Positions 780-36,016 of a DNA stretch of 64,000 nt are shown piece by piece. Both the position numbers and the translations under genes were made by a program. Below the pieces are notes generated by a model, which saw only the letters and a list, made by a program, of their open reading frames with translations, had not been told where the DNA came from and made no database searches. The first letter of the stretch is position 1; every line of letters begins with the position of its first letter. Source of the stretch: Clostridia bacterium (GTDB lineage: Bacteria; Bacillota; Clostridia; TANB77; UBA1234); NCBI GenBank assembly GCA_900765095.1, contig CAAFRB010000098.1, positions 7,887 to 71,886 of the forward strand. The letters are read 5' to 3'.

Positions 780-917
780 ATTTTTATACAATAGGAAAGA
801 AACAAATTTGCAACCTTTTATGTATCAATTTTCTTTCCTATTGTATAAAAAAACTTTAATTTATGCGGGAGATTTTTATCCTTTTAGGTCAAAAGAATGA
901 AAGAAAATTATGAAATG
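780..917 (+). repeat. Intergenic structured repeat element, copy A (module 1 intact, module 2 with internal deletion)
   Basis: 18-bp inverted repeat TTTTATACAATAGGAAAG...CTTTCCTATTGTATAAAA around a 35-nt spacer, then ttaatttatgcgggagattttt... matching copies at 18573, 35862(-), 60575 and 20155. Confidence 0.65.
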
Positions 918-931
918 AATATATTTTAATT

Positions 932-2102
932 TTGTTAATAGAATGGTATAGGGTGATGTTTGTGAAAATATTGAGGTATGGTTCTACAGGAATTGATGTA
1001 GAGTTATTGCAAAGCACATTAAAGAAAATAGGTTTTTACAATGGAAAGATTGATGGAATTTTCGGGAATCAGACACAAGACGCAGTGTACAATTTTCAAA
1101 GAGAGTTTGGGATAAAAGCTGACGGTGTTGTTGGAGAACAGACTTGGAATAAACTGAAGCCATATATAAATGGAACGGTTGGCAATATTGTTCCAACAGA
1201 TATGAGTTATCCTTACAGAATAATGATGATGAACATAAACTCTTTGAAAAATAAGTATCCGTTTATCGTTGTTGGAAACTATGGCGAAAGTGTTCTAGAA
1301 AGAAAAATTCCGTATATAAAGCTTGGTGTTGGGGAAAAGCAAGTGTTTTATAGTGCTTCTATGCACGCAAACGAATGGATAAACTCAGTTGTCATGATGA
1401 AATTTGTGGAAGAGTATGCAATTGCTTATGAGAATGATGGAAAGCTATTAGATAGAACCATAAGAGAGTTGTATAATGATGTGTCAATATACATAGCACC
1501 CATGGTAAATCCAGATGGCGTGGACTTAGTAACTGGGGATTTAGATATGAATCTTATAGCGTATAGAAACGCGAAAACAATAGGAAACAACTTCCCAAAC
1601 ATTCCATTTCCAAGTGGTTGGAAAGCTAATATACTTCGGGGTAGATATAAATTTACAATTCCCGGCAAATTGGATATTAGCACGAGAAAATAAATTTTCA
1701 CAAGGCTTTGTAAGACCTGCTCCGAGAGATTTTGTAGGATACGGTCCACTTACTGAACCAGAATCACTTGCAATATACAATTTCACATTAGCGAATGATT
1801 TCAAGCTTATACTTGCATATCACACACAAGGCGAAGTTATATTTTGGAGATATTTAAATTTGGAGCCAGATAATGCTCAAAGGATAGGAGAAGAATTTGC
1901 AAAGATAAGTGGATATACATTAGATGATGTAGTAGATACAGGAAGTTATGCTGGATATAGAGATTGGTTTATACAAGATTATAGAAGACCAGGATACACT
2001 ATAGAAACTGGAAGTGGCGTAAATCCGCTTCCTATAGAACAATTTGAAAAAATATATAATGATAATATAGGAATATTAATAACTGCACCATACAGTGTTT
2101 AA
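932..2102 (+). pseudogene. Peptidoglycan-binding domain / M14 zinc peptidase (gamma-D-glutamyl-L-diamino acid endopeptidase-like), disrupted by a +1 frameshift
   Basis: N-terminal PG_binding_1-like motif (GIFGNQTQDAVYNFQREFGIKADGVVG); HANEW zinc motif; GVDINLQFPANW (M14 signature) continues in the other frame from ~1584; two overlapping ORFs 932-1693 and 1614-2102. Confidence 0.65.
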
Positions 2103-2154
2103 TCTATAAAGTTTGTAGCAGAGCACTGTAAGGCGGTTTGACGTAATAAATTAT

Positions 2155-2183
2155 TTGACAGCTAAAGTTTATCCTTGTATAAT
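2155..2183 (+). promoter_or_regulatory. Consensus sigma-A promoter (TTGACA-17-TATAAT)
   Basis: TTGACA at 2155-2160, 17-nt spacer, TATAAT at 2178-2183. Confidence 0.5.
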
Positions 2184-2265
2184 TAGATGCGTGGTGATGT
2201 TTTTGCAGATTTTGTGGAAAGTAATGTGCAAAATGTTACAAATTCGTTACTTTATTTATTGTATA

Positions 2266-2297
2266 AAAAGGCGACCTTGTTATGGTCGCCTAATTTT
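2266..2297 (+). terminator. Hairpin GGCGACC-ttgttat-GGTCGCC followed by uaauuuu (terminator or attenuator-like)
   Basis: 7-bp perfect GC-rich stem, short U-rich tail; sits ~85 nt downstream of the consensus promoter and just before the start of the next CDS. Confidence 0.4.
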
Positions 2298-2317
2298 GAT
2301 ATATGGAGATATTGTTT

Positions 2318-33753: not shown

Positions 33754-33768
33754 ATTGGGAGAGTTCTT

Positions 33769-34152
33769 ATGAATATAACTCAAATTGTGGCATTTGGATT
33801 GGTGGCTACTTTTATAATTGTTTTGCTAAAACAGTATAAGAGTGAATATGCAATTTATGCGTCTGTTATAGCAGGTGCGACGCTATTGTTTTTTGCTATG
33901 AATAAGGTTGGCACAATTATTAATTTGCTTGAGAATTTAGTTGATACTGTTGGAATAAATAAGGAATTTTTTAGGATTCTTCTAAAGATAACTGGTATTG
34001 CTTATTTGGTGGAGTTTGCTTCTAATATGTGTAAAGATGCTGGTGAAAGTGCAATAAGTTCAAAGATTGAGCTTGCTGGTAAATTACTGATTGTGACTTT
34101 ATCGATTCCTATAATATCAACGCTTGTGGAAACTATTACCGAGATAATTTAA
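33769..34152 (+). CDS. spoIIIAD: Stage III sporulation protein AD
   Basis: 127-aa polytopic membrane protein in operon order. Confidence 0.8.
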   Translation: MNITQIVAFGLVATFIIVLLKQYKSEYAIYASVIAGATLLFFAMNKVGTIINLLENLVDTVGINKEFFRILLKITGIAYLVEFASNMCKDAGESAISSKIELAGKLLIVTLSIPIISTLVETITEII

Positions 34153-34165
34153 TGGAGATATACTT

Positions 34166-35272
34166 ATGAAAAAATTAGTATTTTGTGTAATTTGTATTGT
34201 TTTATGTATGTTTGTAAAAGTTTCTTTCGCTACTGATGTTGATATTGATACGTTCTTGAATGAAACTAAACAATATACTGCTGATTTTTTTCCAAATCTT
34301 AATAGTCAAAATATAGTTGATGAGCTTATAAATGGTGGCAATATTGATTCTAAAAGTTTGCTTAATAAAGTTGTTGATATCTTTATTGGTAAGATTAAAG
34401 AAAATGCGAAAATAATTTTTTCTATAATTGCCGTTAGTATTCTTTGCAGTATACTTAAAAATGTACAGTCGACCTTCGGCGGGAATGTTAGTGAAATTGC
34501 GTTTTATGTGTGTTATCTTTTTATAATTATATTAATTATTACATCTTATACTGATGTGATTTCCGTGTGCAGAGATACGATAACGAAGCTAAATAATTTT
34601 ATGAATATGCTTATTCCTTTGGTGCTAGGTTTGCTTGTGACAAATGGAAATATTGTTTCTGTTAGTATTCTTCAACCTGTTTTGCTTGTAATGACATCTA
34701 TTATAAATGTTGTGATATCGAATGTTATATTGCCAATAATTTTTGTTTCGACGATGATGAATCTTATAGGAAATATATCTGAAAATATTAAGATTTCTAA
34801 AATACCCAAGTTACTACAGAAGACGTGCTTATGGTGTCTGGAATTTATTTTGATTATTTTTATTGGCGTTTTATCTATTGAAGGAACTTTAGGGGCTAAT
34901 GTTGATGGTGTGACTGCGAAGGCTGCTAAAAGCATAGTTAGTACAGTAATTCCCGTCGTTGGTAAAGCATTAAGTGATGCTACTGATAGTATTCTTGGAG
35001 CGACTATGATAACGAGGAACGCTGTTGGAATTATAGGGATGATTGCGATTATTTCGATAGTGCTCAATCCCTTAATTAGTGTACTAATTATGATGATTAC
35101 ATATAATGTGGCTGCGGCTTTGATTGAGCCGATTGTTGATTCGAGGATATCTAAATGTATGAGTGGAATGGGCGATTCTATAAAGATTGTTTTTGCACTT
35201 ATGGCGACGGTATGTATGCTGTTTATAATATCTACGACTATAATGATAAAGATAGGAAATTTTTCAATATAA
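34166..35272 (+). CDS. spoIIIAE: Stage III sporulation protein AE
   Basis: 368 aa, signal peptide plus multiple TM helices, SpoIIIAE family. Confidence 0.8.
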   Translation: MKKLVFCVICIVLCMFVKVSFATDVDIDTFLNETKQYTADFFPNLNSQNIVDELINGGNIDSKSLLNKVVDIFIGKIKENAKIIFSIIAVSILCSILKNVQSTFGGNVSEIAFYVCYLFIIILIITSYTDVISVCRDTITKLNNFMNMLIPLVLGLLVTNGNIVSVSILQPVLLVMTSIINVVISNVILPIIFVSTMMNLIGNISENIKISKIPKLLQKTCLWCLEFILIIFIGVLSIEGTLGANVDGVTAKAAKSIVSTVIPVVGKALSDATDSILGATMITRNAVGIIGMIAIISIVLNPLISVLIMMITYNVAAALIEPIVDSRISKCMSGMGDSIKIVFALMATVCMLFIISTTIMIKIGNFSI

Positions 35273-35304
35273 TTTAAGTAAGGTAGTGTGCGTTTGAAAG
35301 AGAG

Positions 35305-35859
35305 GTGATGAGATTGATTGATAGTTTATCAAATTATGCTATTGCTATAATTTGTTCGTCATTTCTTATGAATATAATTCAGATGATATTGCCTAATAGT
35401 GCGAATAGAAAGTACGTGATTTTTGTTTGTAGCGTTATTGTTACGATAATTCTCGTTAATCCTGTTGTAAGTTTTGTTAACAAAGATTTTGATTTACAAG
35501 AGATTTTTGAGAAGAATCAAAAAGAGTATATTGATTTGGAGAAGGATTATGAGAGTAAATATAATGATGAGGTAATTTTGAAATACAAGAAAAACATAGA
35601 AGATGGCATTGTGGAAAGATTAAATGAGACGGGTTATGTTGTACATAATATTGAATGTGAATATGACGAATATTCACTGGAACCTAAGGCTTTGCGACTT
35701 GACATAGAGGCGGATAATGGTGGTGTAACGCCTGTTAGAATAGAAGTTTCTAGCAATTATAAAGCGAGCGAAAATAAAGTTTCGTTTGTTGAGATTACTA
35801 ATATTAAAAGCATGATAAAAAAGACTTATGGAATTAATGACATAAAGATAAATGAGTAA
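35305..35859 (+). CDS. spoIIIAF: Stage III sporulation protein AF
   Basis: 184 aa, two N-terminal TM helices, operon position. Confidence 0.7.
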   Translation: MMRLIDSLSNYAIAIICSSFLMNIIQMILPNSANRKYVIFVCSVIVTIILVNPVVSFVNKDFDLQEIFEKNQKEYIDLEKDYESKYNDEVILKYKKNIEDGIVERLNETGYVVHNIECEYDEYSLEPKALRLDIEADNGGVTPVRIEVSSNYKASENKVSFVEITNIKSMIKKTYGINDIKINE

Positions 35860-35861
35860 GA

Positions 35862-36016
35862 AAGATGAAAATCGAAGATTTTCATTCTTTCGACCCTCGA
35901 GAGTTTTCGACTGAAAGAAAGAAAATCTCTCGCATAGAATAAAGTTTTTTATACAATAGGAAAGAAGATAATTACATAAAAGATTGCAAATTTGTTACTT
36001 TCCTATTGTATAAAAG
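35862..36016 (-). repeat. Intergenic structured repeat element, copy C (full length, inverted orientation), inside the spoIIIA operon
   Basis: reverse complement aligns end-to-end with copy B (18573-18730) at ~93% identity. Confidence 0.7.

Follow-up and report, generated by a model that had tools for sequence, protein, structure and literature searches.

The window, which is the whole 64,000-nucleotide stretch of Clostridia DNA analysed here, contains among other genes the spoIIIA operon with spoIIIAF and spoIIIAG, an alcohol dehydrogenase (ADH) gene and lemA. Between its genes lie about 7-10 copies and remnants of one repeat, comprising two full-length copies, three partial ones and two to five further decayed remnants (Table 1). 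The first-pass annotation of this DNA, made from the sequence alone, had listed at least five copies. All five were found where it had placed them, the two full-length ones with the ends now given in Table 1, and more exist: the remnants ending at 2272 and at 18887 are significant, whereas others are weaker.

Table 1. Repeat copies, remnants and target stem-loops in the window
Feature	Position	Strand	Remarks
Copy A	781-912	+	HP1 intact; module 2 shortened by deletion, remainder decayed; fixed in all strains seen
Copy B	18573-18731	+	Full-length, young; present or absent among strains; HP1 18573-18643, HP2 18657-18690, HP3 18697-18728
Copy C	20160-20231 (start ~20155)	+	Old, diverged module 2, ~71-79% identity; directly after the ADH terminator
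Copy D	35858-36016	-	Full-length; follows the spoIIIAF stop codon and precedes the spoIIIAG ribosome-binding site, antisense to the spoIIIA operon
Copy E	60566-60660	+	Module 2 (HP2 and HP3) and A-run, without HP1; ~92% identical to B; fixed in all strains seen
Remnant of HP1 left arm and loop	2218-2272	-	Abuts the T-run of stem-loop 2269-2291; nhmmer E = 0.006
Possible old HP1 remnant, weak	6046-6140	+	Left arm 17/21, right arm TTCCTATTG; after stem-loop 6028-6050; nhmmer only E ~1.3, context supports
Old module 2 remnant	18816-18887	-	Antisense to the ADH gene, within its 5' leader; nhmmer E = 7e-8; in all strains
Possible remnant TTTATGAGA...GAAAGAATGAAAA	38336-38365	+	After stem-loop 38318-38336; local alignment beats all 300 shuffles
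Tiny possible remnant, weak	58113-58145	+	5' part of module 2, resembles the copy A variant; nhmmer E ~1.5
Intrinsic-terminator stem-loop	18550-18573	+	Its T-run is the insertion point of copy B; example target
Other target stem-loops	741-780, 2269-2291 (-), 6028-6050, 20134-20159, 38318-38336		From the terminator scan, except 38318-38336, which was read by eye and is absent from the scan list

Anatomy of the repeat unit

Copies B and D, the two full-length copies in the window, share 93.7% identity over 158 nt. The 18-nt arm TTTTATACAATAGGAAAG occurs six times without a mismatch, as three inverted pairs (shuffled sequences gave 0.4 matches at up to three mismatches), and the core of module 2 occurs four times against 0.02 expected. 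GC skew is positive throughout the window, and most of the main copies lie on the strand that forms the lagging-strand template.

The full unit is non-coding, measures ~155 bp and comprises three hairpins, HP1, HP2 and HP3. HP1 stands at the very left end of the element and consists of a perfect 19-bp stem closed by an asymmetric loop of 33 nt; an 18-bp perfect inverted repeat around a 35-nt spacer had been described here, and although the 18-nt arm is indeed perfect in all three pairs, the spacer measures 33 nt. A run of five to seven A residues at the foot of HP1 separates it from the shorter HP2 and HP3, each of which has one bulged base. HP3 does not resemble HP1 and ends 2-3 nt short of the right end of the element, ...CATCTTTCTT(G). 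The nested palindromes noted earlier in module 2 were borne out, the three hairpins folding with a z-score of ~-7 on either strand. Terminal inverted repeats are absent when the left end, TTTTATACAATAGGAAAG, is compared with the reverse complement of the right end, AAGAAAGATGAAAATC; the inverted repeats of the unit are its internal hairpins.

Both-sided changes were found at nine stem pairs, a number reached by only 4 of 500 shuffles. In addition, HP1 of copy L045a carries two A-T to G-C swaps, and L052 has a matched extra G/C in both arms of HP1. These paired changes indicate that the hairpins matter to the element. Stem mismatches were G-T or T-G in 28 cases and A-C or C-A in 19, with no excess of G-U over A-C, and hairpin loops are flipped in some copies, as in HP3 of copy D, which has TTC instead of GAA. 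A scan of copy B, including HP1, found no promoter-like site. Since none of the hairpins has a good T-run behind it, the element adds no terminator.

The structured RNA family suggested in the first-pass annotation, taken here as a small RNA or a cis-regulatory 3' or 5' UTR element transcribed from each copy, would accord with the strong predicted folds, some covariation and the intergenic location. Nevertheless, it is highly improbable. Rfam returned no match at the gathering threshold in the whole window, and the best sub-threshold hit on copy B (25.6 bits against a required 64) is noise. The opposite strand folds equally well, the mismatches reveal no strand signal, and copies lie downstream of terminators. 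Moreover, copies come and go among strains, occur in both orientations relative to neighbouring genes and with flipped loops, and decay freely as orthologues. Thus, with neither an Rfam match nor strand-specific pairing nor a promoter, an RNA gene is unlikely.

Insertion sites and junctions

Among the 13 copies with an intact left end, 12 begin directly after a stem-loop and T-run (A, B, the remnant ending at 2272, L001, L002, L003a, L003b, L040, L045a, L045b, L045c and L052, the L designations denoting loci in other contigs). Copy D, the exception, follows a T-run only, and a run of three to seven T residues precedes every intact left end. As we read the scans, a copy or a remnant occupies most of the window's strongest terminator-like sites. 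All copies had been described as sitting just 3' of genes or terminators. This is true of copy E, for instance, which directly follows the lemA stop codon, but not of copy D, located inside the spoIIIA operon upstream of the spoIIIAG ribosome-binding site, nor of the 18816-18887 remnant in the ADH 5' leader.

Insertion just past a terminator stem-loop and T-run, in 12 of 13 intact left ends, follows the target logic of class C group II introns, and the unit might be a retro-mobile element that homes to terminators as they do, or a fragment of such an intron. The resemblance concerns target choice only, and the reading is close to refuted: the unit has 155 nt, no intron 5' or 3' consensus and no group II match in Rfam even at E values up to 10, a reverse transcriptase gene was not seen, and it is the T-run-proximal end that truncated copies lack.

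At site B, the sequence is TTTT-CA-ATGTGG in the empty allele and TTTT-[element]-ATGTGG in the filled one: the four Ts pre-exist, CA is missing and the junction is not seamless. A classic IS200/IS605 insertion, in contrast, would be seamless. The comparison of empty with filled sites that had been proposed thus yielded an empty allele, but no target-site duplication was seen, either at site B, where that allele is known, or in the 13 junction pairs, which have only Ts on both sides. Neither a duplication of 2-4 nt (TT, TAC or TTAC) nor a shared TTGT core fits both site B and site D, and an old remnant hidden in the empty allele of site B was rejected because its alignment was no better than those of shuffles (p ~0.7).

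On the right, the flank begins with G in 9 of the 13 copies. The sequence (G)[T/C]ACAAT, equal to the start of another copy minus TTTTA, directly follows the right end in L003b, L040 and L045c, and GTAC is found to the left of copy D but to the right of L003b and L040. An older left-end remnant is present in the right flanks of L003b and L045c (p<0.003 and p ~0.03, respectively, against shuffles). At such stacked sites the downstream partner is much older than the upstream copy.

These junctions bear on whether a circular or tandem form of the same element integrates through conservative site-specific recombination, with the recombinase (of the tyrosine, serine or IS110 type) encoded elsewhere. 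The recombination would use a short T-rich core, the element junction ...CTTTCTT-R-TACAAT... being exchanged with the target T-run. We give this reading little weight. It would suit the lack of terminal inverted repeats and of a target duplication, the Ts at both junctions, the frequent G and the placement of GTAC, and the right ends of L003b, L040 and L045c, which look like a head-to-tail junction. However, the targets share only a T-run and a variable stem-loop, a poor fit for bridge-RNA or att-type recognition, and far older downstream partners are also expected from independent insertions at one site. Site B misfits a simple core exchange, and no recombinase gene was found in the loci examined.

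Mobility and decay of the copies

Three conspecific contigs (L006, L010 and L011) lack copy B, whereas at least eight strains carry it, represented by the window, L007-L009 and contigs L012-L015, which begin inside the copy. The flanks of site B align base for base between filled and empty alleles, and the two allele groups differ by only ~0.5-1.1% in flanking DNA. Polymorphism within the species rests on this one site, as the other four of the five main copies are fixed in the available strains and look-ups around window proteins, one sister-species protein and L003 found no second polymorphic site. Between species, the gap from spoIIIAF to spoIIIAG, which holds copy D, is 176 bp in the window versus 19-21 bp in sister species L043 and L045.

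Other gut Clostridia contigs carry copies at non-homologous sites whose flanks have no DNA similarity to the window. The copies in other genomes show 89-95% identity to copy B, whereas the orthologous, mostly coding, sequence of the two sister species is only ~86-87% identical to the window. Selection for a host function is another possible cause of such high identity across species and of the few compensatory changes. Short-read contigs break within the element, three of them inside copy E, which is what a multi-copy repeat would be expected to cause. Exact-pattern searches of public data matched two genome contigs and three metagenome contigs, so that the family is rare there; copy B had no blastn match in plasmid and phage collections, nor did a scan of viral contigs find one.

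The MITE/REP-like character suggested at first is supported by a unit that is non-coding, multi-copy, located at non-homologous sites in several genomes and cleanly present or absent between conspecific strains. Copies are not confined to the window. A local duplication or assembly artefact restricted to the contig, for which nothing speaks beyond the initial single-window view, is refuted, since independent assemblies of many samples, as well as other species, carry copies at non-homologous sites.

Young copies of known full extent are all full-length, with the exception of copy E. Deletions have occurred between internal direct repeats (GTCGAAA in copy A and GATTTTC in L045:12877-12981), and the long HP1 palindrome has been lost in E, C and L043. 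Truncated copies lack the T-run-proximal end; the distal end is not the one missing. Orthologous copies decay freely and differently in the sister species, both of which also have decayed copies at the site of the 38336-38365 remnant. The proposal of a modular element assembled from independent modules was not upheld, as loss of the HP1 palindrome and deletions between direct repeats account for the apparent modules. The partial modules represent products of decay and not units from which the element is built.

That orthologous copies decay freely also weighs against the idea of a host-maintained REP-like repeat, retained for mRNA 3' protection, terminator backup or nucleoid protein binding and spread by a domesticated RAYT-type enzyme. 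We consider this rather improbable, even though the copies sit at gene ends with very high terminator occupancy, display compensatory stem changes, are mostly fixed in the species and are more alike across species than the genes shared by sister species. Stem mismatches accumulate without strand bias and loops flip, copies are also found within an operon and in a 5' leader, antisense in both cases, no terminator is contributed by the element, and a RAYT gene was not seen in the loci examined.

Proposed mechanism and known systems

The family, whose repetition, anatomy, mobility, target pattern and paths of decay are observed here, very probably represents a ~155-bp non-coding, non-autonomous, hairpin-type (MITE/PATE-like) mobile element of uncultured human-gut Clostridia that inserts next to terminators. 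It would be a new family within a well-known class of genomic parasites rather than a new RNA gene.

We propose that the unit is pasted immediately 3' of a T-run, nearly always one behind a stem-loop, that is, at an intrinsic terminator. The left end faces the T-run, which can thus pair with the A-run of the element and lengthen the HP1 stem; this pairing may help to choose or align the target. The site past a terminator would offer a safe harbour where genes stay unbroken and the copy is barely transcribed. Repeated insertions at one terminator would stack, with the newest beside the T-run, and copies then decay as the unstable HP1 palindrome is lost and deletions arise between internal direct repeats.

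The element is presumably moved in trans by an enzyme encoded elsewhere. Our best guess, a tentative one, is a hairpin-recognising single-strand transposase (HUH/Y1, either IS200/IS605- or RAYT-like). A doubtful further reading is a form of targeting so far undescribed, in which the A-run at the foot of HP1 pairs with the terminator T-run and splints the 3' end of the target to the 5' end of the element for joining by an unusual enzyme; if true, a DNA element rather than a group II intron would home to terminators by structure plus T-run. Neither the window nor the called genes or largest ORFs of the related loci that were examined yielded a gene for a transposase or recombinase. Likewise, no longer parent element with the same ends and no full-length Y1-encoding partner were seen in the window and these loci, and their gene tables listed no single-copy RAYT gene flanked by repeats. 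Two candidates were rejected. Module 2 as the 3' end of a transposase gene, searched by chimeric six-frame translation against a protein collection, led to one spurious ORF running through another copy, and two repeated ~500-aa proteins without a Pfam family in L045, a locus with copies of the element, are pilin-like paralogues and not transposases.

The repeat family is a marker of one genus-level clade of uncultured, spore-forming Clostridia from the human gut. Short-read assemblies of its host genomes break at it; it also provides presence/absence markers at the level of strains in these genomes, and searches there for small RNAs or regulatory motifs should mask it. Furthermore, it is a clean natural case of a DNA element landing almost only just past terminators, a habit so far documented mainly for class C group II introns, and orthologous sites in three species display the stacking and decay of such elements. 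A partner enzyme, if found, could reveal how terminator-like structure and a T-run are recognised.

Full-text searches for diagnostic sequence strings and keyword searches of the literature gave no description of the family. Among known systems, PATEs (palindrome-associated transposable elements) are non-autonomous derivatives of IS200/IS605. Like them, the element is small and non-coding, lacks terminal inverted repeats and target duplications, has bulged hairpins near its ends, appears to insert beside a short fixed sequence on the left (here the T-run) and has most of its main copies on the lagging-strand template. It differs in that HP1, perfect over 19 bp, abuts the very end and far exceeds in length the subterminal hairpins of known IS200/IS605 ends, the left and right hairpins are unlike, the target includes a stem-loop, no TnpA/TnpB partner was found, and the one empty/filled pair, at site B, is not seamless.

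Class C group II introns home just past the stem-loop and T-run of an intrinsic terminator, a neutral landing site; the element, in contrast, is ten times smaller and has no ribozyme, reverse transcriptase or Rfam match. REP systems are described mainly in Proteobacteria, whereas the host here belongs to a Firmicute lineage. The element shares with REP/BIME and REPIN-RAYT systems palindromes at gene ends, a high density and, in HP1, a long hairpin of REPIN style, but it is a fixed 155-bp composite of three hairpins rather than a 20-40-nt palindrome, with no conserved GTAG-like head and no RAYT gene seen. Classical MITEs such as Correia elements and RUP resemble it in being non-coding, multi-copy, intergenic and strain-variable, ~100-200 bp long and found as decaying copies; here, however, the ends are not mutual inverted repeats and no TA or other duplication flanks the copies. 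Finally, bcr1, an interspersed repeat of ~155 bp, is reported to be accompanied by a TTTAT duplication and to be restricted to the Bacillus cereus group. While these two features of its description set it apart from the element, bcr1 as described likewise has a Firmicute host, a nearly equal length, an intergenic location, a predicted stable fold and a T-rich insertion site (TTTAT).

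Copies in the window and fold of the unit

The family is represented in the window by two full copies, B and D, whose identity of 93.7% over 158 nt agrees with the approximately 93% reported in the first-pass annotation, and by three partial copies at the sites named there. With the remnants detected by profile search and the weaker candidates, the total comes to 7-10 copies or remnants in 64 kb, in line with the earlier estimate of at least five. The perfect inverted repeat of 18 bp was also recovered: its arm TTTTATACAATAGGAAAG occurs six times without mismatch, forming three inverted pairs, against 0.4 matches at ≤3 mismatches in shuffled sequence. 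Arm coordinates place 33 nt between the arms, correcting the 35-nt spacer originally given. The core of module 2 occurs four times versus 0.02 expected.

Copies and remnants of the element in the window
Feature	Position	Strand	Source
Copy A, partial	781-912	+	repeat finder and blastn
Copy B, full	18573-18731	+	coordinates read directly
Copy C, partial	~20160-20231	+	repeat finder and blastn
Copy D, full	35858-36016	-	coordinates read directly
Copy E, partial	60566-60660	+	repeat finder and blastn
Significant remnant	2218-2272	-	profile search
Significant remnant	18816-18887	-	profile search
Weaker candidate	~6046-6140		
Weaker candidate	38336-38365		
Weaker candidate	58113-58145		

The full unit is predicted to fold into three hairpins. 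HP1, a 19-bp perfect stem with a 33-nt loop, is followed by an A-run and a short linker, and then by HP2 (CGAGAG(A)TTTTC ... GAAAACTCTCG) and HP3 (GAAAGA(A)TGAAAATC-GAA-GATTTTCATCTTTC), which together constitute module 2 and have one bulged base each. The 3' end of the unit reads ...CATCTTTCTT, the next base usually being G. When the two unit ends were compared, they were not inverted repeats of each other. The fold z-score was about -7 as DNA, as RNA, and for the opposite strand alike; thus, the hairpins are DNA palindromes without strand preference. In an alignment of 16 copies, 90.8% of the stem cells were paired and nine stem pairs were altered on both sides, a number equalled in only 4 of 500 shuffles. 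Therefore, the hairpins matter.

Paired changes of this kind are also what a structured RNA family, one of the readings offered by the first-pass annotation, would leave behind. Two A-T to G-C swaps in HP1 of a sister-species copy (L045a) and, at L052 from a more distant relative, an additional G/C matched between the HP1 arms are explained equally well by an RNA, by selection on the hairpin when the element transposes, or by correction of one arm from the other. At L045:12877-12950 (copy L045c) and L052:17652-17724 the HP1 loop points the opposite way to the remainder of the element, and so does the 3-nt HP3 loop in copy D (window 35873-35875); these inversions are evidence that loops flip between the palindrome arms as DNA. 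Stem mismatches, divided between 28 G-T/T-G and 19 A-C/C-A, carry no strand signal. Given also that the element has no match among Rfam families, that its orthologous copies decay freely, and that scans of copy B found neither an internal promoter-like site nor a good T-run after any hairpin, an RNA gene is unlikely.

Mobility and genomic setting

Syntenic contigs of conspecific strains from other samples were retrieved via the alcohol dehydrogenase (ADH) gene downstream of copy B. The gap upstream of ADH is 153 bp shorter in three of these loci (L006, L010, L011) than in L007-L009 and the window; in the alignment, exactly copy B is cleanly missing from the three, with base-for-base identical flanks. 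Since the neighbouring DNA of the filled and empty allele groups differs by only ~0.5-1.1%, these groups are sublineages of one species. Two sister species (L043, L045) share ~86-87% DNA identity with the window across 11-13 kb, and in both the spoIIIAF-spoIIIAG spacing is 19-21 bp versus 176 bp in the window, where copy D occupies the gap. The element is mobile DNA.

Confinement of copies to the window had been proposed as the sign of a local duplication; copies were instead found at unrelated sites in other genomes. Scanning public genomes and metagenomes for exact patterns located full copies in MAGs of two uncultured gut Clostridia (L001, L003 and L004 from one organism, L002 from another), in stretches with no DNA similarity to the window outside the element. 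Other sites are occupied in the sister species and in a more distant relative (three copies in L045, one in L043, two in L050, one in L052), and one further copy was found through a spurious ORF. Counted by lineage, the family occurs in those of L001, L002, L040, L043, L045 and L052 and is apparently missing from that of L053. Copies from other genomes share 89-95% identity with copy B, and in the two sister species the identity of the element exceeds that of their genes to the window, which points to a conserved source copy or horizontal spread. Short-read contigs repeatedly terminate within the element, as expected of a multi-copy repeat.

The window has ~31% GC and a GC skew that is positive throughout. 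Because it encodes the spoIIIA sporulation operon, a GerA-family germinant-receptor operon, relA, recJ and uvrC, it represents the chromosome of a spore-forming Clostridia species; proteins identical to its own are encoded in one NCBI MAG and in numerous metagenome assemblies from the human gut. Gene calls for the window and its surroundings include no transposase.

Several neighbouring features deserve mention. Copy B directly follows the terminator of a gene for a 1380-aa surface protein with Listeria-Bacteroides (Flg_new) repeats; this gene, with internal 36-nt coding repeats at 14584-14808, lies in a GC-rich island (12000-18543; 43-45% GC vs ~31% elsewhere) and was probably acquired horizontally. 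A weak PreQ1 riboswitch-like match just 5' of the ADH start codon (18875-18910; 18.4 bits vs gathering 39, E = 0.26) is probably due to chance, and a 40-nt inverted repeat between convergent genes (42948-43039; 83% complementary, 12-nt gap) is probably a bidirectional terminator unrelated to the family. In the window species (32109-33022; also L021 and L022) and both sister species, spoIIIAA is called as two ORFs of 93 and 143 aa with ~200 bp between them, versus one 303-aa gene in L052; gene disruption, an intervening sequence or recoding could account for the split. In strain L021 (725-790 vs window 31723-32109), the gene upstream of spoIIIAA differs from that in the window and L022, and a partial element copy sits at the breakpoint; the repeats may thus mediate rearrangements. 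A GerA-family germinant-receptor gene (23750-25562) is split into two ORFs whose boundaries vary across strains L006-L014 (155/162 aa plus 377/390/395 aa), suggesting a frameshift-prone or decaying gene. Two paralogues of ~500 aa in L045 (5162-6646 and 18054-19592) share 72% identity; their N-termini resemble pilin/Flp1, and neither matches a Pfam family at gathering score. Upstream of the former, the DNA varies among strains L045, L046 and L047.

Target sites, junctions and decay

Of 13 copies whose left end is intact, 12 start directly after a stem-loop and 3-7 Ts. These stem-loops differ in sequence and are therefore not part of the element. The sole exception, copy D, has a plain T-run before its left end, adjoining a ribosome-binding site. 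At the remnant at 2272, the T-run is on the strand opposite the neighbouring genes, so that the target is a DNA feature rather than the act of termination. As we read the terminator scans, a copy or remnant occupies most of the window's strongest terminator-like sites. The empty allele of site B, where copy B is inserted, already has the four Ts, which in the filled allele pair with the A-run of the element and lengthen HP1. Older left-end remnants occur in the right flanks of L003b (p<0.003) and L045c (p ~0.03), and three sites have (G)[T/C]ACAAT immediately after the right end; both would be expected if insertions recurred at a single terminator, with the newest copy beside the T-run. Short direct repeats (TCTTGCT..., TCTTGTACA) 10-17 nt apart at right junctions (L050:4860-4890 and L003:10755-10800) could stem from a tandem duplication in place or be the stumps of older copies stacked there.

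Target-site duplications, for which an alignment of empty and filled alleles had been suggested, were seen at none of the copy junctions, including site B. Nor is the junction at site B seamless: GCAGCCTTTT-CA-ATGTGG in the empty allele corresponds to GCAGCCTTTT-[TATACAA...CATCTTTCTTG]-ATGTGG in the filled one, a mismatch for which this one polymorphic site cannot distinguish a footprint, a target deletion or a later mutation. Several duplication models and core-exchange models were tried on sites B and D, and none fits both.

Copy A is missing the stretch between two GTCGAAA direct repeats, L045:12877-12981 that between two GATTTTC repeats, and copies E, C and that of L043 are without HP1, a long perfect palindrome of the kind known to be unstable in bacteria. 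An acuF-like/miaB-like intergenic site decays species by species: L045 retains HP1, with its loop flipped, and a module 2 stump, L043 only module 2, and the window ~30 nt. Young copies of known full extent are all full-length except E. Thus, the modules, previously thought to occur independently in a modular element, arose by decay of a single full-length unit. Two perfect sigma-70 consensus promoters (12/12; window 6127-6155 and 2155-2183) lie in or beside decayed remnants; the -35 box TTGACA of the former falls within an apparent mutated right arm of HP1, and this remnant may have turned into a promoter.

Mechanism and known relatives

Our study shows a non-autonomous element that inserts in fixed orientation beside a terminator-proximal T-run, without terminal inverted repeats or duplication, and retains its hairpins in those copies that are active. 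It would be moved in trans by a hairpin-recognising enzyme, the best-matching class being the single-strand HUH/Y1 transposases of IS200/IS605 and RAYT systems. The G-rich strand, which is the lagging-strand template, carries 6 of 9 copies or remnants and 4 of the 5 main ones; this bias fits the HUH/Y1 class and equally fits co-orientation with genes. Against this class, HP1 is unusually long and strictly terminal, the hairpins at the two ends are dissimilar, the junction at site B is not seamless, and no partner gene was seen among the loci examined. The main mechanistic rival to an HUH/Y1 enzyme is a site-specific recombinase that would act on a T-rich core.

The diagnostic sequence strings of the element had no match in a full-text literature search, and the element was absent from the phage and plasmid collections searched. 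Its closest known kinds include the PATEs of IS200/IS605, REP/REPIN elements, the Bacillus cereus bcr1 repeat and classical MITEs; class C group II introns are close to it in target choice only. The MITE/REP-like label of the first-pass annotation holds for a mobile, non-autonomous repeat but not for the terminal inverted repeats and duplications of classical MITEs, which the element lacks. We class it as a new family within an already known type of element, one whose preference for terminators is unusually strict.
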